DNA of 15,182 nucleotides from a virus (IMGVR_UViG_3300028482_000024:1-15182); one strand, 5' to 3'. Shown: positions 1 to 11,403, counted from the stretch's first letter. Numbers and translations are program-made. The notes: generated by a model not told the origin, from the letters alone.

Positions 1-2
1 AT

Positions 3-1058
3 CGAACTACAAAAGCCTCTACATTTCAACTACTCTTGGATACCTTGGATTAGTTTGGCATTAGAGATAAATGTAGTATTAACCGCACGGATTTTACTAT
101 CACATTGCCGAATGGTTCGTCATTTTTATGTATGGGTCTTGACGACCCCGAAAAAATAAAATCTATTACAGGTTTGACGGACGCTTGGCTGGAAGAGGCG
201 ACCGAGTTTTCGCTTGACGATTTTAGTCAGGTGAATCTTCGTATAAGAGACCCGAAAGCCGAGGACCAGGAGGTTATATTATCATTCAACCCGGTCAGTA
301 AAGCGAATTGGTGTTATCTACAATTTTTCGCGGATAATGAAGAACTAACCGAGTTCCGCAAAACCGTAAAAATAGTTCATACAAATTATCTGGATAATCC
401 GTTCCTTCCTCCGGAGTATGTGTAGGCATTGTTATTGATGAAAGCAACTAACGAGGTCTATTACAAAATCTATGCTCTTGGAGAGTTCGGCAGTCTGGAT
501 AAATTGGTTTATAATAATTGGCAAAAGATGGATTTTGACCCGACATTAATTAAGGGCCAACTTCTATGCGGACTTGACTTCGGCTATACGAATGACCCAA
601 CGATGTTTATGGCATCAATACTGGTAGAAGAAGAAAGACGCATTTATGTGTTTAAGGAATGGGGAGGAACCGGTTTCTTGAACGACCAAATCGCAGATTA
701 GATAAAAGAAATGGGGTTCGCTAAAAGCCTCATTATGGCAGATAGTGCCGAGTAGAAATCAATTGATGAGATTAAGCGTAAAGGCATCGCCCGCATTAAG
801 CCCTGTGTAAAGGGGTAGGGTAGTGTGTTGTAGGGCATACAAAAACTTCAATAGTATGAAATCATAGTTCATCCATCTTGTCGCAACACGATTGAGGAAC
901 TTCAAAACTACTCTTGGAAGAAAGATAAGCAGACTAATGAGTATATCAACGAGCCCATTGACGCATTTAACCATAGCCTTGACTCGCTCCGATACTCGCT
1001 TCAATGTATCGACGCACGAGCACAATTGGCTTCTATGAATAAAGATTTATTGTTCTAA
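3..1058 (+). CDS. terL: Terminase large subunit (PBSX/Terminase_3-like), 5' truncated by the window edge; contains 7 in-frame TAG codons
   Basis: Frame 3 is open from the window edge to TAA 1056-1058 if the TAGs at 51, 423, 699, 753, 816, 831 and 852 are read as sense. The translation carries terminase motifs before and after the TAGs: DAWLEEATE (Walker-B-like), ILSFNP, GLDFGYTNDP, ADSAE-x-KSIDE, NYSWKKD and PIDAFNHSLDSLRY (nuclease domain). Track ORFs 105-425 and 429-701 are same-frame fragments of this gene. Confidence 0.9.
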
Positions 1059-1079
1059 TATTAAAAGGAGGACAAAAGA

Positions 1080-2447
1080 TTGTTTAGTCTAAATAATATT
1101 GAAGAATTAACAGATAAAGTAATCCGCAGAATTGTGGAGAATCATCGCAGTTCAGTGTTCCCTCGTTTGTAGAACTTGGAGAACTACTACAACGCGAAGA
1201 ATGTTATTAATAACAGACTTATGAAGGATAAGTCTAAACCTAATAATAAAATCGCAAATGCGTATGCGAGTTATATTACTGATACATTGGTTGGCTATTT
1301 TATCGGCGAACCCATTTCTTATACCTCAAATGACGACACCCTTTTGTAGGATTTAAGCATGATTTTTGAATATAATGACGAGGCTGATGAGAACGCTGAA
1401 CTCGCGAAGAATGCGAGCATCTACGGCGTGGCTTATGAGATGTTATATTTAAGCGAAGAGGATAAGATGATTAGGTTTAAGGCTCTTAACCCAAAAGAGA
1501 TTATTCCTATTTTTGATAAGACTGTGGAGCAGAACTTGATGGCAGTCATTCGTTATTATGATGATTATGATGTAGTTGATGATAAGACCTACACATTAGT
1601 TGAAGTCATCGATGGTTCGATGGTCCGCAGATATAAGATGGATAATTCTTTCTTACTTCTGGAAGAATATCCTCATTACTTTGGCATGGTGCCTATTGCT
1701 ATTTATAAGAACAATGAAGAAGAGCGTGGCGACTTTGAGGCTGTCATTAGTCTGATTGATGCGTATGATAAGATGGAGTCAGATACTTTAAATGATTTTG
1801 AATACTTTGTTGATGCTTATTTGGCTTTGTATGGCTTTACCGCAGAACCAGAAGATGTAGCACAGATGAAGGAGAATCGTATCCTACTCATGGATGAAGG
1901 CACCAGTGCTGAATGGCTTATCAAGCAGACCAGCGATACTTATGTCGAGAACATGAAGAACAGATTAGATGCTGATATTCATAAGTTCGCCAAGTGTCCT
2001 AATATGTCTGATAAGGAGTTTGCCTCTAACGCATCAGGCGTGGCTATTAAGTTCAAGTTGTTAGGCACAGAGAACCTCGTATCTATTAAGGAGCGTAAGT
2101 TCAAGCGTGGCTTACAGCAGAGATTAGAACTAATGAGTATGATTAATTCAGTATTACGCGAAGGCTTTGATTGGCGTGCTATTGATATTATCTTTACTCG
2201 TAATATCCCATCTAATGATACTGATATTGCTAACATGGTAAATACTTTGAAGGACATCGTTAGTGAAGAGACATTGCTGGCTCAAATCCCATTTGTCGAG
2301 GACGTTCAAGATGAATTAGAGCGTCTAAAACAAGAACGCGAAGAAAATAAAGAACTGAACCCATTTTTCCAAACAGGATTATCATATCAGACCAATGCTA
2401 TGGCTAACAGCACAGAGCAACAGGTTAAAGAGGAGGAGAAAGAATAA
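1080..2447 (+). CDS. Portal protein (SPP1 gp6-like), TTG start, 2 in-frame TAG codons
   Basis: AGGAGG at 1066-1071 lies 8 nt upstream of TTG 1080. The frame matches track ORF 1359-2447 and is interrupted only by TAG 1170 and TAG 1347. The restored N-terminus reads (M)FSLNNIEEL...FPRL-x-NLENYYNAKN...KPNNKIANAYASYITDTLVGYFIGEPISY, the typical gp6-family portal N-terminal region. The gene ends with TAA at 2445-2447 and encodes 455 aa, a typical portal size. Confidence 0.85.
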
Positions 2448-2836
2448 TGGGATTAGAATTATTGTTCCAGATTTTCGAGTTGTGTATTATTCCTCTATTA
2501 GCGGTGCTAACCGGCTATTTAGTTCAGTGGATTAAAGCAAAGACCGCAGAGGCAACAGAAAAGAACCAGAAGGATGTATTTGATAAATACATCACTATGT
2601 TGGGTGAAACGGTCGCCAAGTGCGTGTCCGCAACTAATCAGACCTATGTAGATGCGTTAAAGAAGGCCGGCTCATTTGATGCCGAGGCCCAGCAATACGC
2701 ATTTGATATGACCTTATCCGCAGTTATGGGCGTGTTGGGTCAGGATGCTATTGAATACTTAACCGCTATCTATGGTGATTTACACACTTATTTGACTACA
2801 TTAATTGAGGCCGAAGTAAAGGCACAGAAGGAGTAA
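2447..2836 (+). CDS. Small membrane-anchored protein (N-terminal TM helix; architecture reminiscent of LL-H-type holins); function uncertain
   Basis: Intact 129-aa ORF coupled to the portal stop (TAATG), with GAGGAGGAG upstream. It has the hydrophobic N-terminus LELLFQIFELCIIPLLAVLTGYLVQWI followed by a charged helical region ending LIEAEVKAQKE. There are no in-frame TAGs. Confidence 0.55.
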   Translation: MGLELLFQIFELCIIPLLAVLTGYLVQWIKAKTAEATEKNQKDVFDKYITMLGETVAKCVSATNQTYVDALKKAGSFDAEAQQYAFDMTLSAVMGVLGQDAIEYLTAIYGDLHTYLTTLIEAEVKAQKE

Positions 2837-2837
2837 T

Positions 2838-3746
2838 ATGAGTATCACAACAGTTCCAGAGGTTCCGCATTTTAATCGCTATGTTAAGCCGACTGTTGAG
2901 TTAGTCCTTCGACTATTGGCCGAGGCCTATGAAGACCAACACCTATTGGATAAGATACTAAAAGAAATTAGCGATGAAGTGTTCGCGGAACTGGCAAAAG
3001 AAATCCAACGGTTGGCTGATGATGGTAAAATTAATCTTGATAAAAAGATTGATTTATATAATAATCCCGCACTTCTCACCGCGTTAAAGCGGATTGAGGC
3101 GAAGTAGTTGTAGAGATTTACTGAATATTGTTGGATAGGATATCAGGTAATTGGGGAGAGTTTGGTGCGGGCTTACTCTACAACTCTCGCCGAGACTTAT
3201 CAGATGTTTAATTATACAAAAGGGCTTGACCCACATAACCTCTCTTCTGGACCAAAGTCGTATAATGTATATGTTTAGACAACTGACACTCATATTCGGG
3301 AGCAGGTGCTTAATGTGCCGTGGTGTCAGGATGGTAAGATTTATAGTGATAGACTCTGGGGACATGTAGCACAATTTCAATAGAAATTGAGTTATGTTTT
3401 AGAAGAGGGGATTAGTAAAGGTAGAGGTATGGAATGGATGATGTAGGCGTGGCAGAAATTGGCTGGTGGAACGGCGTATAACACTGCCCGCCTACTGAAA
3501 ACCGAGACAATGGCGATGTGGTCTCGGGCAACGAAAGACGCATATCTTGAAATGGGAATTGAATATGTCGCTATTGTGGGCGACGCAGAATGTGGAGGCA
3601 TTTGTCTGGATTATGTTGATGGCGAACCAATCCCATTGGCAGAGGCGGAGATTGGCGACCTACTCCCTCCATATCACCCGAACTGTGCTTGTAGTTTTGT
3701 GGCCTGGGAAGAGACTGTTGAAATCCCATTGGGCGAAGAAGTATAA
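2838..3746 (+). CDS. Head morphogenesis / minor capsid protein (Phage_Mu_F, SPP1 gp7-like), 5 in-frame TAG codons
   Basis: Track ORFs 2838-3107 and 3459-3746 share a frame and are joined by open sequence interrupted only by TAGs at 3105, 3111, 3276, 3381 and 3444. The joined protein (302 aa) shows the family hallmarks WCQDGKIYSDRLW, NTARLLKTETMAMW, and DAECGGICLDYVDGEPIPLAEAEIGDLLPPYHPNCACS (C-x-x-C ... PP-HPNC-C motif). It ends with TAA at 3744-3746. Confidence 0.85.
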
Positions 3747-3827
3747 ATCCATCGCTACTATTCTTAATATATTTTAGAAGGCTACAACTCAATGAGGGGT
3801 AGCAAATTAATTGGAGGTTTTATTTTT

Positions 3828-4418
3828 ATGGCTGAAATTGTAAATGATAAGGGTTCTGTTGTTGAATCTTCAACTGGCATTGAGACAGGGGAAGTCGCGG
3901 TTGAGAAAACTTATACTGAAAGCGAAGTCCAAGCATTATTACAACGCGAAGGCGACCGTAGAGTATCAAGTGCTCTGAAAAAGCAACAGAAAGAGTTCGA
4001 GAGACAAACCGCGGAGGCTGACAAGTTGAGAGATATGGACGAAAGTCAGCGTAAAGAGTATGAATATACTCAAAGGCTCCAAGAGTTAGAAAACAAAGAG
4101 CGAGAGTTCGCCATCGCCCAGAATAAGTTAGAGGCAACCAAAGTAATGGCGAACAGAGAACTCCCTATTGAGTTCGTTGATTATATCGTAGCAGAAGACG
4201 CAGAGACAATGATGGAGAATATCACCGCATTTGAACGAGCATTTAAGTCCGCAGTGGCCGATGCCGTAGCGAAGAAGATTGCGTCTCCCGCACCAAAGAC
4301 TGGGTCCGCTAAACAGACAGGTATGACAAAAGAGGAGTTCAGAAAGTTGTCAGTGGCACAACAGACTGAAATCTTCCGCACTAATCCTGAATTATATAAG
4401 CAGATGACCCGACAATAA
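3828..4418 (+). CDS. Capsid scaffolding protein (DUF4355-like)
   Basis: GGAGG at 3813-3817 lies 10 nt upstream of ATG 3828; the track start at 3792 lacks an RBS. The product is charged and coiled-coil-like: EVQALLQREGDRRVSSALKKQQKEFERQTAEADKLRDMDESQRKEYE...ELPIEFVDYIVAEDAETMMENITAFERAFKSAV. It sits directly upstream of the capsid gene and has no TAG. Confidence 0.8.
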   Translation: MAEIVNDKGSVVESSTGIETGEVAVEKTYTESEVQALLQREGDRRVSSALKKQQKEFERQTAEADKLRDMDESQRKEYEYTQRLQELENKEREFAIAQNKLEATKVMANRELPIEFVDYIVAEDAETMMENITAFERAFKSAVADAVAKKIASPAPKTGSAKQTGMTKEEFRKLSVAQQTEIFRTNPELYKQMTRQ

Positions 4419-4442
4419 CAAATATTAAAGGAGATTATAAAT

Positions 4443-5222
4443 ATGGCACATGTTATTTATGAAAACGAGATTTTGAGTAATAAACTGACTGACATTTTAA
4501 CTACTCAAATTGATATGAACGCTTACATGACCGTTGATACTTCCATGACCGAGCAGGCTGGTATGAAGAAAGTTATCAACACTTATGTCGCTTCTGGCGA
4601 TGTTGAAGAGTTGGCAATGGGCGAGGGCAATGAGACTGAAATCAGCGTAAGTTTCACTTCTGCCGAGTATGATGTTCTGACTTATCAGGGCTATTTCCAC
4701 TACTTCGACGAGCAGGCTATGACTGACCCCATGGTTGTTGATGCTGGCCTGGACGGTTCCGCAAAGACCATGGTTAATAAGTTCGTAGCAAAGGCAATTG
4801 AAGAGTTCGAGAAGGCAACTCTTGAAGCACCCGCATCCGCTTGGAGTTTCGAGGCTGTTGTTGATGCTATCGCAAAGATGAACCTTGAAGCAGAAGAGGG
4901 CTTGTTCCTGTTAATCTCTCCTGCCGACCAGGCTTCCTTCCGTAAGGCATTGAAGGACGATTTGAAGTATAGCGAAGGTTTCGTTCGCACCGGCTACATC
5001 GGCACTGTTTGCGGTGTGCCTGTCATCGTATCCAAGGCTGTTCCCGCTAATAAGGGCTATTTGGCTACCAAAGAGGCTGTTAGCGTATTCATTAAGAAGG
5101 ACACCGAAGTAGAGCAGGACCGCGACCCTGATACCCGTGATAATAAGTTCTGGGTTCGTAAGGTTGCTGTTGTCGCTCTGACCGATGCTACAAAGGCTGT
5201 TAAGATTAATATCGGTGGTTAA
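4443..5222 (+). CDS. Major capsid protein (HK97-fold type, short ~259 aa form)
   Basis: AAAGGAG lies 9 nt upstream of the ATG. The position after the scaffold, strong codon regularity and an intrinsic terminator directly downstream support the call. The sequence pattern (..GMKKVINTY..GDVEELAMGEG..FDEQAMTDP..) resembles small Firmicutes-phage capsid proteins that pair with DUF4355 scaffolds. No in-frame TAG. Confidence 0.8.
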   Translation: MAHVIYENEILSNKLTDILTTQIDMNAYMTVDTSMTEQAGMKKVINTYVASGDVEELAMGEGNETEISVSFTSAEYDVLTYQGYFHYFDEQAMTDPMVVDAGLDGSAKTMVNKFVAKAIEEFEKATLEAPASAWSFEAVVDAIAKMNLEAEEGLFLLISPADQASFRKALKDDLKYSEGFVRTGYIGTVCGVPVIVSKAVPANKGYLATKEAVSVFIKKDTEVEQDRDPDTRDNKFWVRKVAVVALTDATKAVKINIGG

Positions 5223-5247
5223 TCCACATTAAAAGATTGAATGAACT

Positions 5248-5293
5248 GGGCTTGCTTGTTCGAAAGGGCAAGCAAGCCCTTATTTTTATTTTA
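5248..5293 (+). terminator. Rho-independent terminator downstream of the major capsid gene
   Basis: A perfect 11-bp stem pairs GGGCTTGCTTG (5248-5258) with CAAGCAAGCCC (5269-5279) around a 10-nt loop, followed by the T-rich tract TTATTTTTATTTTA. Confidence 0.8.
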
Positions 5294-5308
5294 TTAAGGA
5301 GGATTTCA

Positions 5309-5605
5309 ATGTTAGACAAGATTAAACTTCTGTTGAGTAGATTAGATGATGACACCGCAGATGAACTATTGAATACTCTCATTTCTATGTGTAAAGAAGA
5401 GGCTTACATTTATTGTAATTTATCTGAATACGATAAGAAATTAGATAACATTGTTGTGTGTATGGTTATTGAAAAATATAACCGCATGGGTAGCGAAGGC
5501 ACTACAAGCCAGAGTTCTTCCGGCGTGTCCGCTTCTTATGACAGTTTTTACAGCGATAAGATTGTGCGTATGCTAAATAAGTTTAGAAAGGTTAAGATGG
5601 TATGA
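5309..5605 (+). CDS. Head-tail connector / adaptor protein (gp6-like, SPP1 gp15 position)
   Basis: AAGGAGG at 5296-5302 lies 6 nt upstream of ATG 5309; the track start at 5237 lies inside the terminator hairpin. The N-terminus MLDKIKLLLSRLDDDTADELLNTLISMCKEEAYIYCN matches the connector-family pattern (LK..L.i..d.D.ll..li..a). It ends with TGA at 5603-5605, overlapping the next ATG. Confidence 0.65.
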   Translation: MLDKIKLLLSRLDDDTADELLNTLISMCKEEAYIYCNLSEYDKKLDNIVVCMVIEKYNRMGSEGTTSQSSSGVSASYDSFYSDKIVRMLNKFRKVKMV

Positions 5606-5919
5606 TTAAAAGAGATACAATTCAGAGATATTCCGCCGTCCTAACCAAGGACGCGATGGGCGGGGATGTTGTTGATTTAGTTCCCGCAGAAAATGTAAGA
5701 GCACATGTTTCCATCAACTCTACTATTGGAGAAATCACCCAGTATGGGTTGAAAGAAGAAATGGTGCTACATGTTATAACCGATATCGAGTTAGATATTT
5801 ATATCCATACTCGTTATATGTATTCCGGTCGCCTGTTTAGATTAGTGCGTCAAATTAAGTAGGGTAATGAATATTATTCTACACTAATTGAAGTAAATGG
5901 AGGTAATGTAAATGCTTAA
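5602..5919 (+). CDS. Head closure protein (SPP1 gp16-like), extended 19 codons through TAG 5860
   Basis: The start is in an ATGA overlap with the previous gene. The standard-code ORF stops at TAG 5860-5862. Read-through adds [18 protein letters not shown] and ends at TAA 5917-5919, overlapping the next start by 8 nt. Size and synteny fit a head-closure protein. Confidence 0.55.
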
Positions 5920-6241
5920 CTATAATGCTGATACTAATGCCATTTCTATGATTGCGAAAGACACCGGAGATTTCGTAATTTCACTTGATAATTACTTACT
6001 TGCCGAGGGCGATAAGGTGTTTTTCACCGTGAATGATGGGTTAGAAAAGGAGCCCGCACTCATCTCTATCGTCGTTAGTGAGTTTGTTGATAATAAAGCC
6101 GTTATTCATCTATCTGCGACTGATACTAATTTGGCTCCTGGTAATTATTATTACGACGTTCAGGTAAATACTGCGGACGGTCGTATTGATACTGTATTGG
6201 GTCCAGCCAAGTTTAAAATCGCGGGAGGGGTGAAGTATTAA
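5912..6241 (+). CDS. Hypothetical beta-sandwich / Ig-like protein (first gene of the fibre block)
   Basis: GGAGG at 5899-5903 lies 8 nt upstream of the ATG. The ORF is an intact 109 aa. The C-terminal pattern [28 protein letters not shown] resembles Ig-like domains of phage baseplate/decoration proteins; this assignment is from memory only. Confidence 0.55.
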
Positions 6242-6735
6242 TGGCTAAAATTGAAGTTTTAAATAATATTGACGCAGTTGTTGAAGATATCCCTGTTATT
6301 AACACCTCTATGAGTAATGCCATTTATCGTGGCCCCAAAGGAGATAAGGGCGAGCGTGGAGATGTCGGCCCACAAGGTCCCCAGGGTATTCAAGGCGAAA
6401 AAGGCCAGGATGGTTCTATTGGACCCCAAGGCCCCGCAGGCAAAGATGGTGCCCCAGGTCCTCGTGGAGAGCGAGGCATTCAAGGTGAGATGGGACCACA
6501 GGGACCCGAAGGCCCCCAGGGACCTATCGGCCCCAAAGGCGAAATTGGTCCTATCGGTCCCGCAGGTAAAGATGGTGTTGATGGGGCCCCCGGACAAAAA
6601 GGTGATAAGGGCGAGCCCGGGGTTTCGGGCGTATATGTTGGAACTACTGCTCCTACTGATGAGAGTGTCGTGGTGTGGATTGATATTGCTGGCACAGGAG
6701 AAGATTTGGAGCCCGCAGAGGGAGGTAGTTATTAA
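6241..6735 (+). CDS. Collagen-like (Gly-X-Y) fibre protein 1
   Basis: There are about 33 uninterrupted G-X-Y triplets ([21 protein letters not shown]...GEPGVSG). The start is coupled by TAATG at 6239-6243, and the gene ends ...EPAEGGSY with TAA at 6733-6735 overlapping the next ATG. Confidence 0.9.
6331..6630 (+). repeat. Gly-X-Y collagen triple-helix repeat tract (9-nt periodic GGN-NNN-NNN)
   Basis: Direct reading of the translation, residues ~31-130 of the 6241-6735 product. This GC-rich periodic tract also generates spurious long ORFs in other frames and on the minus strand. Confidence 0.9.
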
Positions 6736-7865
6736 TGGCATTAAAGACTGTTAATGAAGAGAGTTTAGTGGCTCTTGGCAATGCGATTAGAGAAAAGACT
6801 AATACGAATGATTTGTTAGTATTTCCTAATGGTATGATTGACGCGATTAATTCTATTACTGGTGCTATTGAGGTGCCTGAAATTGAAATTAGTGGTAATG
6901 GTAATTATGCTTGTGCTGGTTTATCAGGTGAATATATTAATTTATTTGGAGATAAAATTAAGACGCGTAATTTAAGTAATGCGTAGTATATGTTCTCCTA
7001 TTGTAGTGCCCCTAATATTCCATTTGAAATTAATTTTTCTTCTTCTGCGAATATGTAGTATATGTTTAGAGGTTGTAAAATGAGAAATGTCCCAGTCATA
7101 AATAATGCGAAGCCATCATCATTATATAATTTTTTTGCTGATTGTTATTATTTAAGATATATTCCAGATAATTTCGGTGAAAATTGGGATTGGAGTTCAG
7201 TTAGTAATTCTTCTGCGAGTGTTTCTTATTTTTTTATTAATTGTTTTTCATTGAGATAGGTGCCAGCATTTTTTAAATAGCATTGTTGTGGGAAGCAGTC
7301 TGCTTAGCAGTGTTTATATTATAGCACTTTTCAAAATTGTTATACATTAGATGAAATTGTTGATTTGCCGGTTTATACGGCTACCGCTCTTACATCAAAT
7401 GTGTTTAATAGCACAGTTTCATAGGCTTCTCGTATTAAAGATTTTACATTTGAAGTAAATACTGATGGCACTCCAAAAATCGCACAGTGGAAGGGATAGA
7501 CATTCAATATGACTTATAATGTAGGATATTTATCATCATCTTATGTGGATACACTTACGGGATATAATACTGGTTTAACCAAAGATACACGTATTACTAA
7601 TGACGAGAATTATCAATTATTAAAAGACAATCCTGATGCTTGGACTGTTGATATAAAATATTCTCGTTATAATCATGATAGTGCCGTCCGCACCATTAAC
7701 TCTCTGCCTGATACATCTGCCTATCTCGCGTCTGCGGGTGGCACGAATACGATTAAGTTCAAAGGTGCTTCTGGCAGTGCGACGGACGGAGGGGCCATTA
7801 ACACATTAACCGAAGAAGAAATCGCAGTAGCAACCGCAAAAGGTTGGACTGTAAGTTTAGCATAA
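6735..7865 (+). CDS. Putative fibre tip / adhesin with BspA/DUF285-type FxxC leucine-rich-like repeats, 7 in-frame TAG codons
   Basis: Track ORFs 6735-6986, 7062-7259 and 7509-7865 share a frame and are separated only by TAGs at 6984, 7056, 7257, 7278, 7305, 7422 and 7497. The joined 376-aa protein has repeated YMFSYC / YMFRGC / NFFADC / YFFINC / TFQNC motifs, with WDWSSVSN in between. The N-terminal LGNAIREKTNTNDL motif is shared with the 8532 gene. The C-terminus reads TEEEIAVATAKGWTVSLA. Ends with TAA. Confidence 0.7.
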
Positions 7866-7876
7866 GGAGGCTAACT

Positions 7877-8068
7877 ATGATTAGTAAAGATTTTATTTTA
7901 ACACGCTATGATGCCGATGTCGGCAAAGTATTTGATTGGAAAGAGCCTCGTTATATTGAGGATGAAAATGGAAATCAAATCCAAGAGCATCTATATGTAA
8001 AGACATTATTTATCGGAAATAATGACACTATTGACAACTACATTGAAATTGAGGAGGTAGTTGAATGA
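7877..8068 (+). CDS. Small hypothetical protein (63 aa), paralog of the 9762-9932 product
   Basis: AAGGAGG at 7865-7871 lies 5 nt upstream of ATG 7877. The shared motif is F/Y-DW..P...HLYVK.LF...ND.I-D/E-NYI. It ends with TGA at 8066-8068 in an ATGA overlap with the next gene. Confidence 0.55.
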
Positions 8069-8532
8069 GTGTTTTAAGATTTAAAGACCCTGCTACTAAT
8101 GAGTGGAAAGAAATTACTACTATTATGGGACCTGCGGGTCCCCAGGGTCCAAAAGGTGAAGATGGCGGTATTAAGTTTGAAGAACTGACCGACGCACAAA
8201 AAGAAGAATTACGTGGCCCACAGGGTATTCAAGGACCACAAGGTGAAACCGGTCCGCGAGGAGAGCAAGGTCCTGCCGGCCCCGAGGGCCCACAAGGCAT
8301 TCAGGGTCCAAAGGGCGACACAGGGGAACAAGGCCCGATTGGCCCAGAGGGTCCCGCAGGCCACACCCCCATAAAAGGCACGGATTATTTTACAGAGGCC
8401 GATAAAACTGAATTAGTGGCTGATGTTGAGGCCATTATGACTAATAAAGGATATCAAACCGAGGCGTAGGTCAATGCGTTGATTACTACTGCTCTTGGTA
8501 ATATTGGTGTAGCGGAGGAGGGTTCTTATTAA
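8065..8532 (+). CDS. Collagen-like (Gly-X-Y) fibre protein 2, extended 21 codons through TAG 8467
   Basis: GAGGAGG lies 9 nt upstream of the start. There are 4 + 17 G-X-Y triplets, then [18 protein letters not shown], a motif common in phage collagen-like fibres. Read-through of TAG 8467 adds [20 protein letters not shown], reproducing the ...EGGSY C-terminus and the TAATG junction of collagen-like protein 1. Confidence 0.85.
8128..8367 (+). repeat. Gly-X-Y collagen repeat tract (two blocks separated by a 17-residue interruption)
   Basis: Direct reading: [12 protein letters not shown], then the interruption [17 protein letters not shown], then [51 protein letters not shown]. Confidence 0.85.
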
Positions 8533-9116
8533 TGAGTAAAGTATTTATTGAAGAAGAAACCCTTATTGGGATTGGTAATGCCATTCGTGAAAAGAACGGC
8601 ACTACGGATTTGATTGCGACTACTGATATGGCTACTGCGATTAGTAATCTGGCTACTGGAAATGGTAGTGGTAATTGGAGTGCCCCTGTGGCTCTAACGT
8701 GGGCGGATACTCAAATTAAAAATGGTGTCAAAGATTCAACAACAACTACTATAACATTTGATTTTTCTAATAAAATTGAGGCTTATGACTATGATTGGAT
8801 GTTTTTAACGTGTTGGGCGGTCTCTGGCTCTACAAAATATACGGTTGCGGTTATGCCTCTAACAACAGTTTTCCCCGACAATGTTGATACAGCAGTTAAG
8901 TTAGATAATTGTGGTGTTTGGTATATGTAGTATGGTAAAAGTGGCTCTGCCACTAACGCTAACGTAAATGCGTTGATTCCTTACTCCTTATACATCGAAG
9001 CATATTATAACCCTGCGACTTGTGAATTAAAATTACGCGGTTCAGGAATGTCAGAAAATCAATTTAAAAATTATGTTGATACAGTAGGCCAGTTGGTTCA
9101 TCGTAAATCTACTTAA
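8532..9116 (+). CDS. Putative fibre tip protein 2 (shares the N-terminal GNAIREK docking-like motif with the 6735 gene), 1 in-frame TAG
   Basis: The start is coupled to the collagen-like gene 2 stop (TAATG). The N-terminus EEETLIGIGNAIREKNGTTDLIATTDMATAISNL parallels NEESLVALGNAIREKTNTNDLLVFPNGMIDAINSI. The standard-code ORF stops at TAG 8928; read-through adds 62 codons, ending at TAA 9114-9116 just ahead of the next RBS. Confidence 0.65.
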
Positions 9117-9132
9117 TAAGGAGGTTTTGCCG

Positions 9133-9750
9133 ATGGGATTATATTGTGAGTTTAGTATAGTTGATGATTTAGGTTATCCGGCCGACTTGTCAGGCGGAGA
9201 TGAAAAAATCGGTGAGGCTTCGGTTTTTGTGAATTATTCCGCGGCGGTAGAAGCATTCATCACGACCTTTTTAGAAGTCGCTAATGAGTTAGTCCCCGTC
9301 GATACTGGATTTTTATAGAGCACCATTGATGCGGGCGGAGGTAGTGATTGGTGCTGGTGTGAAGCGACCGCAGACTACGCTCAATATGTAGAATACGGCA
9401 CAATTAGCATGGACGCATAGCCCTACTTTGAACCGGCTCTTATGGCAGGGATTGAGGCTCTTGGAGGAGAAGCAGAAATAGCCATAAGCGAAGCGTAGGA
9501 TGAATTAGAAGCCATACTGTCGAGTCTGATGGAGGCATCAATGGCGATGGCCGGTAGTTCAGGTGGTATGGGCGGTATGTTCTCCATGGGCTGGGGTCAA
9601 TTCTTTATGGGATTGGCGATTTTCGCGGCGATAACAATCATATTATTTCCGATTTTGGTAAATGTATATGCGATAATAGACTCATTAAGTTATAAGAGTG
9701 ATAGTGGTGGAGGCGGAGGAGGAGGCCTCCCCGAGGTCATTATTACATAA
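9133..9750 (+). CDS. HK97 gp10-like tail completion / head-tail joining protein (SPP1 gp16.1 position) with a glycine-rich transmembrane C-terminal extension, 3 in-frame TAG codons
   Basis: AAGGAGG at 9118-9124 lies 8 nt upstream of ATG 9133; the track TTG at 9127 is too close to the RBS. Track ORFs 9127-9318 and 9529-9750 share a frame, joined through TAGs at 9316, 9418 and 9496. Family motifs span the TAGs: VPVDTGFL-x-STI and ADYAQYVEYGTISMDA-x-PYFEPAL. The C-terminus reads GSSGGMGGMFSMGWGQFFMGLAIFAAITIILFPILVNVYAII...SGGGGGGGL. Confidence 0.7.
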
Positions 9751-9761
9751 GGAGGATTAAA

Positions 9762-9932
9762 ATGGCGAGATTAAGTAATCGTATGATTAAATACGAAGCC
9801 CCCGCAGGTTTCGTATATGACTGGGCCACTCCAAAAGATGATGGCAGTCATTTATATGTAAAATATTTATTTTTATCTAAAAATGATAAAATTGAAAATT
9901 ATATCCTGGTAAAAGACCCAAAAGAGGTGTAA
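9762..9932 (+). CDS. Small hypothetical protein (56 aa), paralog of the 7877-8068 product; below the ORF-track size cut-off
   Basis: AAGGAGG at 9749-9755 lies 6 nt upstream of ATG 9762. The translation is MARLSNRMIKYEAPAGFVYDWATPKDDGSHLYVKYLFLSKNDKIENYILVKDPKEV. It ends with TAA at 9930-9932, 2 nt before the next ATG. Confidence 0.5.
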   Translation: MARLSNRMIKYEAPAGFVYDWATPKDDGSHLYVKYLFLSKNDKIENYILVKDPKEV

Positions 9933-9934
9933 TT

Positions 9935-10351
9935 ATGTTAGAGAAATTAAAGACTGATTTTTACACAATGCTGGTTGAAGAACTGGGTTTAAATGTGCGA
10001 GATAACCGTAATTTCGAGGATGTCGAAAGCCCCTGGTTATTGCTTCGCACTAATGGATATCAACGCGTCCATAGTTTAGGGGTAAGGATGTCTAAAATTA
10101 CATTGGTATTAGATGTATTTTCCCAGTATAATGGCGAAAGAGAAATCATTCAAATCGTTGATAAAGTCGCAGACAGTATCGATGGATTTTTGGCTCAACA
10201 CCCCGAAGTATTATTTTGCCATCAAAGAACCGTTAAGATTTTGGATGATAAATCTACGGGAGTAGTTCGTAAGCACGGCGTGATTGCTTACGAGTTTATG
10301 ATGGGGGAGCATTTTGCTCTCGAAGGCGAGGAGGACCGCACTGATGAGTAA
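9935..10351 (+). CDS. Probable tail terminator / tail-to-head joining protein (SPP1 gp17 position)
   Basis: Intact 138-aa ORF between the gp10-like gene and the major tail gene. The call rests on size and synteny only. The TAA at 10349-10351 overlaps the next start (ATGAGTAA). Confidence 0.45.
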   Translation: MLEKLKTDFYTMLVEELGLNVRDNRNFEDVESPWLLLRTNGYQRVHSLGVRMSKITLVLDVFSQYNGEREIIQIVDKVADSIDGFLAQHPEVLFCHQRTVKILDDKSTGVVRKHGVIAYEFMMGEHFALEGEEDRTDE

Positions 10352-10730
10352 TGTAGCCCGCAGTATTGATACTGTAATTCGCCTAAATGGCGTGGCTCTT
10401 GGCGGACAGCAGGGAGCCAATCTGGTTAGACAGACCGAGGCCATTGATATTACTAATCATATTAATGGTGAATGGTCCGAGAGTCTCGCAGGTAAGAAGA
10501 GTTGGAGCATTGTGTGCTCTGGCTTATATATCACTAATGATAGAGCCTTTAACCTTTTGGATGATGCTTTTATGAATAATAAGACTGTTGAAGTTCTTAT
10601 TTCTTTTGGCTCAACTAAATTGAAGGGTAATGCCATTATCACTGATTTTCCTTTGAGTTCTGTGTTTAATAAGGAGTTTAAATATAATGTTAGACTCCTT
10701 GGCACAGGGGCACTTCTGCCGGAGGCATAA
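10344..10730 (+). CDS. Major tail (tube) protein, TP901-1/phi13 family type
   Basis: GAGGAGG at 10328-10334 lies 9 nt upstream of ATG 10344; the track start at 10314 is inside the previous gene. The 128-aa product fits the family pattern: LNGVALGGQQGANLVRQTEAIDITNHINGEWSESLAGKKSWSIVCSGLYI..AFNLLDDAF..KTVEVLISFG..LKGNAIITDFPL...KYNVRLLGTGALL. Confidence 0.8.
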   Translation: MSNVARSIDTVIRLNGVALGGQQGANLVRQTEAIDITNHINGEWSESLAGKKSWSIVCSGLYITNDRAFNLLDDAFMNNKTVEVLISFGSTKLKGNAIITDFPLSSVFNKEFKYNVRLLGTGALLPEA

Positions 10731-10731
10731 G

Positions 10732-11220
10732 ATGCTTCTACGAACCCATAGAAAAATCTATGAGTTCAATTTTGGTCTCAAAGGATTAATTATGATGCGA
10801 GAAAACGCAGATTTAGTGATGGCAAATGATAAGCATTTTATTTTATATTGTGGGCTTGTGAGTAAGCAACCCACAATTACATTTCAGGAAATTGATGAAA
10901 TTATAAATGAATGCGACTTATCGCAACTTGACATCACACCAAATATCCTTTCTTTATTCGAAGTTGAGGAGTTATACACGAAGGCCGTTGGCGAAATAGG
11001 TATAACTCCCAACGATTTTTACTCTATGACTCCTGGCGAGATTGACCTCGCTTATGAGGGTTATTTGAGAAGAAAAGAGACCGAAGCGAACTTAACCAAA
11101 ATGGCTATTATAACCAGCCAAGACGGTGAATTAATACGTTTAACAGAAGATAAGGGTTATTCCGTAGGCAGTAAGGCAGAACGAGAAAAAGTGTTTAGAT
11201 TATTAAATATTCAAGAATAA
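10732..11220 (+). CDS. Tail assembly chaperone (G-like N-terminal half and T-like C-terminal half in one frame)
   Basis: GGAGG at 10721-10725 lies 6 nt upstream of ATG 10732. The N-terminus KIYEFNFGLKGLIMMRENADL matches the TAC pattern, and the C-terminal GITPNDFYSMTPGEIDLAYEGYLRR matches the P..FW.lTp.El motif of chaperone T-type segments (from memory). It sits directly after the tail tube gene. Confidence 0.6.
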   Translation: MLLRTHRKIYEFNFGLKGLIMMRENADLVMANDKHFILYCGLVSKQPTITFQEIDEIINECDLSQLDITPNILSLFEVEELYTKAVGEIGITPNDFYSMTPGEIDLAYEGYLRRKETEANLTKMAIITSQDGELIRLTEDKGYSVGSKAEREKVFRLLNIQE

Positions 11221-11232
11221 GGGGGATTTTAA

Positions 11233-11403
11233 ATGAATTATAATGAACTCTTAACCCAGTTATCGACAAAGATGTCATCTGCGTCAATTAAAGCAAGTGG
11301 CTCCCGCACTGCTAATAACGCAGTATCGACACCGAAGGAAGATAACACCTCTACAATGTTGAATAAGATTGGATTAGAAGTCCAAAGACAAGGAGGATAT
11401 TGA
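11233..11403 (+). CDS. 56-aa hypothetical protein occupying the slot where a tape measure gene is expected
   Basis: AAGGGGGA lies ~6 nt upstream of ATG 11233. The translation is MNYNELLTQLSTKMSSASIKASGSRTANNAVSTPKEDNTSTMLNKIGLEVQRQGGY. TGA at 11401-11403 overlaps the next ATG (TGATG). It is below the track size cut-off, and coding status is not proven. Confidence 0.4.
   Translation: MNYNELLTQLSTKMSSASIKASGSRTANNAVSTPKEDNTSTMLNKIGLEVQRQGGY

Follow-up and report, generated by a model that had tools for sequence, protein, structure and literature searches.

The 15,182-nucleotide stretch of viral DNA IMGVR_UViG_3300028482_000024:1-15182 (hereafter the window, meaning this whole stretch) is very probably the structural block of a small uncultivated tailed phage that uses genetic code 15, in which the amber codon TAG is read as glutamine (Gln), with the required suppressor likely supplied in trans and with TAG probably a costly codon to decode. 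Judged from the sequences, TAG is translated as Gln and never ends a gene, and the phage belongs to a family that has standard-code, TAG-sense and TGA-sense relatives.

Under the standard code (translation table 11), the open reading frame (ORF) track of the plus strand of the window consists of short ORFs with apparent gaps between them. We re-derived the frames from stop to stop, counting only TAA and TGA as stops, and obtained a continuous series of full-length plus-strand genes in which the gaps are gone. Eight of these genes hold a total of 27 in-frame sense TAGs (Table 1), at exactly the positions listed in a first-pass annotation of the sequence. The eight genes comprise 2,143 codons and contain neither TAA nor TGA in frame, whereas shuffled sequence has a mean of 104 such codons (minimum 70; 200 shuffles). 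Only 17% of the off-frame stop triplets are TAG, which gives P ~3e-21 for all 27 interruptions being TAG. Two further TAGs lie in the same frames, at 6726 and 9085, but both are 5' of start codons and outside genes. The 20 gene ends that are visible at the 3' side in the window use TAA (17) or TGA (3), and none uses TAG; the three TGA stops sit in ATGA, ATGA and TGATG overlaps. GGAGG-type Shine–Dalgarno motifs, or shorter parts of them, are found ahead of nearly all starts. The first-pass annotation had claimed that these genes lack in-frame TAA and TGA, that no gene terminates in TAG, that the table 11 gaps vanish once TAG is read through and that the ribosome-binding sites are of the Gram-positive type, and all four statements were borne out. 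It had placed the sense TAGs in positions 1-9750; they are present there but are not confined to that range, as the tail ORF that starts at 11403 has seven TAGs past the end of the window.

Several proteins can be followed across their TAGs. In the large terminase, the Pfam domains Terminase_3 (residues 1-161) and Terminase_3C (residues 192-334) cross the TAGs in single stretches. The SPP1_portal alignment (residues 19-425) is one stretch over the TAGs of the portal, the phrog_115 alignment of the Mu-F-like protein (residues 36-296) takes in all five of its TAGs, and the phrog_5 alignment of the gp10-like protein spans two. Homologue alignments of the 105-amino-acid (aa) neck candidate extend past the TAG at 5860 to residue 101 of 107, and the C terminus of collagen-like protein 2, 3' of the TAG at 8467 (..EEGSY), resembles the ..EGGSY end of collagen-like protein 1. 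The profile searches that the first-pass annotation had proposed as a check therefore gave single Pfam or PHROG alignments across TAGs in four genes, and its remark that conserved motifs continue beyond the TAGs agrees with the way the terminase and Mu-F-like alignments run on past these sites.

Pairwise tests used a close relative, IMG/VR UViG 3300012974_000005 (88% identical). The ratio of non-synonymous to synonymous substitution rates (dN/dS) was 0.03-0.09 in the gene segments that follow the first, second, fifth or seventh TAG, with a value of 0.04 after the fifth TAG of the Mu-F-like gene. These stretches are thus under purifying selection as translated protein, which excludes gene decay. 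Recoding rather than decay, the reading offered at first pass, is supported by profiles that span the TAGs, by purifying selection, by exchange of TAG with CAG and CAA, by the Gln signal in homologues and by the lack of TAG-terminated genes.

The identity of the inserted amino acid was examined in two ways. In the 88%-identical relative, TAGs of the window align with TAG (seven), CAG (five), CAA (two) and GAG (one), and one CAG of the window faces a TAG. As seen in this alignment, TAG and CAG exchange as expected if TAG is a synonymous codon for Gln, one C/T transition away. We also scored the TAG columns in homologues without in-frame TAG, namely six family members and 40 GTDB prophage relatives, nearly all of which are Bacillota. 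Summed over the 15 usable sites, the log-odds were +16.3 bits for Gln and negative for all other residues, the next being Lys (-6.4); control columns for Q, E, K and W of the window each returned the correct residue. For example, Gln is the commonest residue among standard-code homologues at the portal TAG at 1170, and relatives show Q or TAG at the gp10-like TAG at 9418. The proposed reassignment of amber to Gln accordingly agrees both with the sole positive residue in standard-code homologues and with the exchange of TAG for CAG and CAA. In the standard-code homologues, columns with TAG show less conservation than those with CAA/CAG (1.09 versus 2.46 bits per site), which suggests that TAGs arose mainly at tolerant positions. 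Database proteins that are 83-98% identical to the terminase were set aside as independent evidence for Gln, because at least the identical one was called with TAG as Gln and the others may have been called in that way too.

The window is 100% identical to positions 970-16151, in phage orientation, of ENA contig ERZ27246352:k141_465237 (25,994 bp); a megablast search of the window against GenBank phages (INPHARED) gave no match. Our genome-wide statements refer to 23 of the 26 kb, made up of 21.7 kb of this contig and 1.3 kb from an identical sister contig. The structural genes of this genome form a single plus-strand block. The 26 genes seen end in TAA (22) or TGA (4) and never in TAG; they contain 34 TAGs and 211 CAA plus CAG codons, so that TAG accounts for 14% of Gln codons, and 10 of the 26 genes carry at least one. 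The public terminase (P0001) is identical to that of the window, with Gln standing at each TAG; the locus does not yield this protein under table 11, which implies that an automated pipeline had already read TAG as Gln on k141_465237. The gene caller of geNomad, prodigal-gv, detects TAG recoding automatically. The earlier warning that standard annotation would misread the element is therefore out of date.

Many relatives are present in IMG/VR on contigs of ~24-27 kb, and four relative contigs have end overlaps of 123/127 bp, which are typical of circular assemblies. We surveyed code use in the first seventeen relative loci fetched. Ten of these (eight or nine phage contigs) have 5-16 in-frame TAGs per 1,000 codons and six have essentially none; in three complete standard-code contigs, TAG ends 2-3 of ~28-30 genes. 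The remaining locus, L008 (IMGVR_UViG_3300031760_000671), is TGA-sense. Its terminase and portal genes are split at TGA codons (~8724-11368), the two TGAs of the terminase (75% identical to that of the window) align with Trp62 and Trp173 of the window protein, and TAG is the stop in 8 of 23 cases. In a rough neighbour-joining tree of terminases, made without bootstrap, the three code states are interleaved within a group of at least 76% identity. By these alignments, one phage family contains standard-code members, TAG-sense members and one TGA-sense member.

One TAG-recoded relative, L013 (IMGVR_UViG_3300037249_000425), encodes a TAG-free tyrosine integrase of 333 aa that adjoins a complete tRNA-Thr(CGT), at 4755-6070. 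No integrase was found in the 23 kb seen of the genome of the window, nor in its closest complete relative. Genome-borne relatives are Bacillota, except for the closest one, a 10-kb contig binned as Bacteroides, and one contig of a Paceibacterota metagenome-assembled genome. A first scan of GTDB genomes with a single portal protein returned nothing, and a scan of JGI metagenomes with the L013 integrase for an integrated copy with host flanks returned only a 1.1-kb contig. Family proteins on contigs of more than genome length gave no host either: the listed places of protein P0160 are free-phage contigs, and the 67.9-kb contig of P0349 is a different phage.

TAG is unevenly distributed among genes. 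In seven TAG-recoded genomes, which are related to one another and which our Fisher tests treat as independent, TAG makes up 26% of Gln codons overall. The share falls to 1 of 51 in the capsid gene (2%) and 3 of 95 in the scaffold gene (3%), and rises to 48 of 90 in the Mu-F-like gene, 21 of 41 in the chaperone-position gene, 66 of 165 in the terminase gene and 15 of 33 in the HNH gene. Under a grouping of window genes that was chosen after the data had been seen, none of the 45 Gln codons is TAG in the set formed by the scaffold, capsid, connector, 109-aa gene (5912-6241), collagen-like protein 1, tail completion, tail tube and chaperone-position genes, and 27 of 113 are TAG in the other genes, excluding the giant ORF. 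The most heavily made proteins avoid TAG and low-copy ones favour it, a pattern that fits slow or incomplete decoding in competition with release factor 1 and a role in throttling or gating late genes.

A decoding agent was sought in the genome and its relatives. ARAGORN, with default settings and with a 90% threshold, found no tRNA in the window or the rest of the genome (23 of 26 kb) and no suppressor tRNA in three TAG-recoded relatives that are complete and several that are nearly so; the tRNA-Thr(CGT) of L013 was the sole tRNA in these scans, and a run at an 80% threshold with introns was discarded as noise. Rfam models, at gathering and at permissive thresholds, detected no tRNA-like element in the genome or the complete relatives, and no release factor or aminoacyl-tRNA synthetase domain occurs among the called genes. 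Clustering of 11 genomes by gene presence and absence revealed no family that is present in all TAG-recoded members and missing from standard-code members. A 129-aa holin family and a 159-aa family were rejected as code-change genes, as each is restricted to one subclade. In TAG-rich relatives, TAGs occur in nearly every gene, the HNH gene and a 211-aa ORF upstream of terS among them, so that little could be expressed before a phage-driven switch.

The check for a suppressor tRNA and release factors that the first-pass annotation had recommended thus came back negative in the 23 kb read. That annotation had also counted the lack of a suppressor tRNA in phage or host as a refutation of recoding. 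The phage half of this is what we find, yet it leaves the recoding call intact because suppressors have been detected in no more than about 40% of phage genomes with recoded TAG (Borges et al., 2021 preprint/2022 Nat Microbiol); a genome in which none is detected is therefore nothing new.

We hypothesize that decoding would call for a tRNA-Gln that suppresses amber (anticodon CUA), or something equivalent, which would most likely come in trans from the host, from a prophage resident in it or from an element that co-infects the cell, or would be a non-canonical RNA that the tools missed. We favour supply in trans because neither tRNA, release factor nor code-change gene was found and because TAGs fill nearly all genes of TAG-rich relatives. 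Decoding of TAG would compete with release factor 1 and would be costly, and this cost would account for the near-exclusion of TAG from the capsid and scaffold genes and for its concentration in the terminase, Mu-F-like, chaperone-position and HNH genes. TAG may gate or throttle late gene expression, as Borges et al. propose.

Several points weigh against this account. The meaning of TAG as Gln in this phage is read from its DNA, and the decoding agent, whether supplied in trans or a non-canonical factor, is a putative one. The nearest genome-borne relatives, by which the host would be judged, share no more than 53% portal identity. The remaining ~2.9 kb of the contig, which runs from the tail-tip gene to the Rep-like gene, is covered only by relatives that are 82-94% identical. 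The gene-level bias carries with it the kinship of the seven genomes and the after-the-fact grouping of window genes.

It is possible, but in our judgement doubtful, that the phage encodes a code-change factor of its own which was missed, such as a non-canonical suppressor tRNA, another small RNA or a small protein inhibitor of release factor 1. With an inhibitor, near-cognate tRNA-Gln(CUG) would read UAG; with any of these factors, the switch would be phage-driven, as it is in larger recoded phages. This alternative contests only the supply in trans and accepts that TAG means Gln. Borges et al. suspect undetected non-canonical suppressors, given the 40% detection rate; about ten small ORFs without known function and several intergenic stretches of 150-230 nt lie between the tail-tip gene and terS, and the ~2.9 kb outside the part read could also hold such a factor. 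However, ARAGORN at 90% and permissive Rfam searches found nothing tRNA-like in the genome or complete relatives, and no gene family is common to all TAG-recoded members and absent from standard-code ones. Moreover, most genes of TAG-rich relatives, the HNH gene and the 211-aa ORF included, hold TAGs, so that few products would be possible before the switch.

A host that itself decodes TAG as Gln constitutively, through a reassigned or weakly terminating amber codon, with the phage mirroring the host code, is improbable. We know of no bacterial lineage in which TAG is read as Gln. Such a host would be consistent with the lack of phage-encoded machinery and with the presence of TAG in almost all genes of TAG-rich relatives, and for code 25 there are known phages whose reassigned code is also that of their host. 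In code-matched phages, however, ~90% of genes carry the reassigned codon, whereas only 10 of 26 genes do so here and TAG is 14% of Gln codons. The temperate relative L013 keeps its integrase free of TAG, and the same is seen in the prophages of Borges et al. in standard-code hosts. The strong avoidance of TAG in capsid and scaffold genes also argues for a costly codon.

There is very little chance that TAG encodes another residue, for example pyrrolysine, which is encoded by TAG in some Firmicutes, or that UAG in the mRNA is changed to CAG by editing before it is translated. DNA cannot separate editing from suppression, but U-to-C editing of mRNA is, to our knowledge, not known in bacteria or phages; the columns of standard-code homologues favour Gln only, TAG swaps with CAG and CAA as in a synonymous pair, and no pyl genes occur among the annotated products. 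A decaying prophage or assembly artefact, in which the TAGs would be nonsense mutations of dead genes, would produce the fragmentation seen under table 11 but is refuted by interruptions that are TAG in 27 of 27 cases with no TAA, TGA or frameshift (P ~3e-21), by the low dN/dS after the TAGs (0.03-0.09), by the recurrence of the same proteins on contigs of several samples, with ~24-27 kb relatives that have circular-type end overlaps, and by seven TAG positions shared with a relative that is ~12% diverged.

Among the eight alternatively coded phage clades of Borges et al., four mix codes 11, 15 and 4. One clade, 'Topaz', consists of small Firmicutes-infecting phages (22 +/- 3 kb); integrases avoid TAG, and a Topaz prophage is bounded by tRNA-Thr. 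By this published description, and not by sequence, the family of the window resembles Topaz. The genome is small (25,994 bp, near the top of the Topaz range), the host is possibly one of the Firmicutes to judge from its signals, TAG is read as Gln in single-block structural genes, and codes 11, 15 and 4 are mixed within the family as in the clades of Borges et al. Relative L013, with its TAG-free integrase beside tRNA-Thr, would match the attachment landmark reported for the Topaz prophage. In contrast, the genome of the window has no integrase in the 23 kb seen, a tail ORF of 2,946 aa with no recognizable tape-measure gene, and only moderate use of TAG (14% of Gln codons).

The TAG-recoded crAss-like and Lak phages (code 15; Ivanova 2014, Yutin 2021, Peters 2022, Borges 2022) likewise read amber as Gln, concentrate recoding in late structural genes and lack TAG as a terminator, and proteomic proof is reported for TAG recoding in crAss-like phages. 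Those are Bacteroidetes phages of 100-550 kb, for which suppressor tRNA(CUA) has been reported as a group and release factor 2 in some Lak phages, whereas the phage of the window is ~26 kb and has Gram-positive-type ribosome-binding sites, with neither suppressor tRNA(CUA) nor release factor 2 found.

The phenomenon itself, its occurrence in small Firmicutes phages, mixed-code clades and the frequent lack of a suppressor are all already published. The novelty claimed at first pass was thus overstated, as Borges et al. had described small TAG-recoded Firmicutes phages in mixed-code clades. The window adds little to what is already established for amber-recoded phages of the gut; its value is that of a very small, tRNA-less case in a family where all three code states occur. 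We suggest, tentatively, that a family of ~26 kb and ~35 genes recodes TAG without a tRNA or release factor of its own and so depends on an outside suppressor or uses a new small RNA or protein. If the suppressor does come from the host or another element, the alternative code would be a dependency or a host-range lock. If this is true, standard, TAG-sense and TGA-sense members that are ~20% apart in terminase would also offer a compact natural setting in which to look for the smallest set of determinants that can switch a code. The family could serve as a test bed for the source of the suppressor in the ~60% of recoded phages that show none, and for recoded codons as a throttle on expression. 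Annotation requires table 15; without it, eight structural genes seem to be broken and the element takes on the appearance of a dead prophage.

Table 1 Genes and sense TAG codons of the window, in window coordinates
Feature	Position	Strand	Evidence and remarks
Large terminase (terL), 5'-truncated by window edge	3..1058	+	Terminase_3 and Terminase_3C across TAGs; stop TAA
Terminase sense TAGs (n = 7)	51, 423, 699, 753, 816, 831, 852	+	
SPP1-type portal, TTG start behind aaaggagg	1080..2447	+	SPP1_portal residues 19-425, E 4e-116; stop TAA
Portal sense TAGs (n = 2)	1170, 1347	+	
Holin-like protein, 129 aa	2447..2836	+	phrog_13712 holin, E 3e-29; TAG-free, 8 CAA/CAG
Mu-F-like minor head protein	2838..3746	+	phrog_115 residues 36-296; phrog_2841, E 1.5e-26; weak Phage_Mu_F (Pfam)
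Mu-F-like sense TAGs (n = 5)	3105, 3111, 3276, 3381, 3444	+	
Scaffolding protein	3792..4418	+	DUF4355, Gp46 scaffold; TAG-free, 14 CAA/CAG
Major capsid protein	4443..5222	+	Phage_capsid_4; TAG-free
Head-tail connector (gp6-like)	5309..5605	+	TAG-free; TGA stop in ATGA overlap
Neck or head-closure candidate, 105 aa	5602..5919	+	One sense TAG, 5860
109-aa gene	5912-6241		TAG-free
Collagen-like protein 1	6241..6735	+	TAG-free
Cys-rich repeat ('FxxC') protein, 376 aa	6735..7865	+	Four relatives align over 385-427 residues
FxxC protein sense TAGs (n = 7)	6984, 7056, 7257, 7278, 7305, 7422, 7497	+	
Collagen-like protein 2	8065..8532	+	One sense TAG, 8467
Tip-like protein 2, 194 aa	8532..9116	+	One sense TAG, 8928
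Neck1/tail-completion-like protein ('gp10-like')	9133..9750	+	phrog_5 over residues 46-111
Neck1/gp10-like sense TAGs (n = 3)	9316, 9418, 9496	+	
Tail completion	9935-10351	+	TAG-free in the genome of the window
Tail tube	10344-10730	+	TAG-free in the genome of the window
Chaperone-position gene, 177 aa	10687-11220	+	TAG-free in the genome of the window
Tail ORF, 2,946 aa, first 1,260 codons	11403..15182	+	TAG-free inside the window; 7 TAGs downstream in full contig

The first-pass annotation had described an SPP1-like module, and the SPP1_portal profile confirms a portal of the SPP1 type. Further likenesses are Terminase_3/3C, the Mu-F-like minor head protein, a Gp46-type scaffold, a gp6-like connector, gp17-like tail completion, a tail tube, an SPP1_Dit C-terminal domain and a Prophage_tail tip, in canonical order. 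The module differs from SPP1 in that the genome has no recognizable tape-measure gene and has a giant ORF at the tape-measure/Dit position, that two pairs of collagen-like and tip genes lie between neck genes, and that a holin gene lies between the portal and Mu-F-like genes. Other labels given at first pass fared less well. 'Gp10-like' has no Pfam match, but the protein does match phrog_5 ('tail completion or Neck1'), and the names head closure, FxxC tip and tip 2 have no support from a Pfam or PHROG family. The FxxC protein in particular has no Pfam, PHROG or PDB match.

The giant tail ORF fills about one-third of the genome, at the tape-measure/Dit position (continuing to locus L061, 11060-19900), and has no Pfam, PHROG or PDB match. 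No tape-measure gene is recognizable anywhere in the genome. On its 3' side follow a separate 118-aa ORF, whose only match is to the C-terminal domain of SPP1 Dit, and then a 342-aa Prophage_tail tip protein.

The public portal call begins at the ATG at 1221. The TTG start at 1080 is backed by homologues and by the strong aaaggagg ribosome-binding site; it adds 47 residues and brings the TAG at 1170 inside the gene. The holin-like protein (2447-2836) has an N-terminal hydrophobic segment, and its position between the portal and Mu-F-like genes is an odd site for a lysis gene; no endolysin was recognized in the readable parts of the genome. In locus L001, at ~7820-7870, two direct repeats of TAATAGTATTATCT are followed by TAATAGG in a long non-coding stretch directly downstream of a Rep-like gene (weak Rep3_N match), and may represent an origin with iterons.

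Collagen-like and 'tip' genes occur as tandem modules at 6241-7865 and 8065-9116. The two collagen-like proteins have ..E(G/E)GSY at their ends, and the ribosome-binding site of the next gene lies inside that coding sequence; both tip proteins begin with a common ..L(V/I)(A/G)(L/I)GNAIREK motif. From these shared ends and starts, the pair looks like a module duplication.

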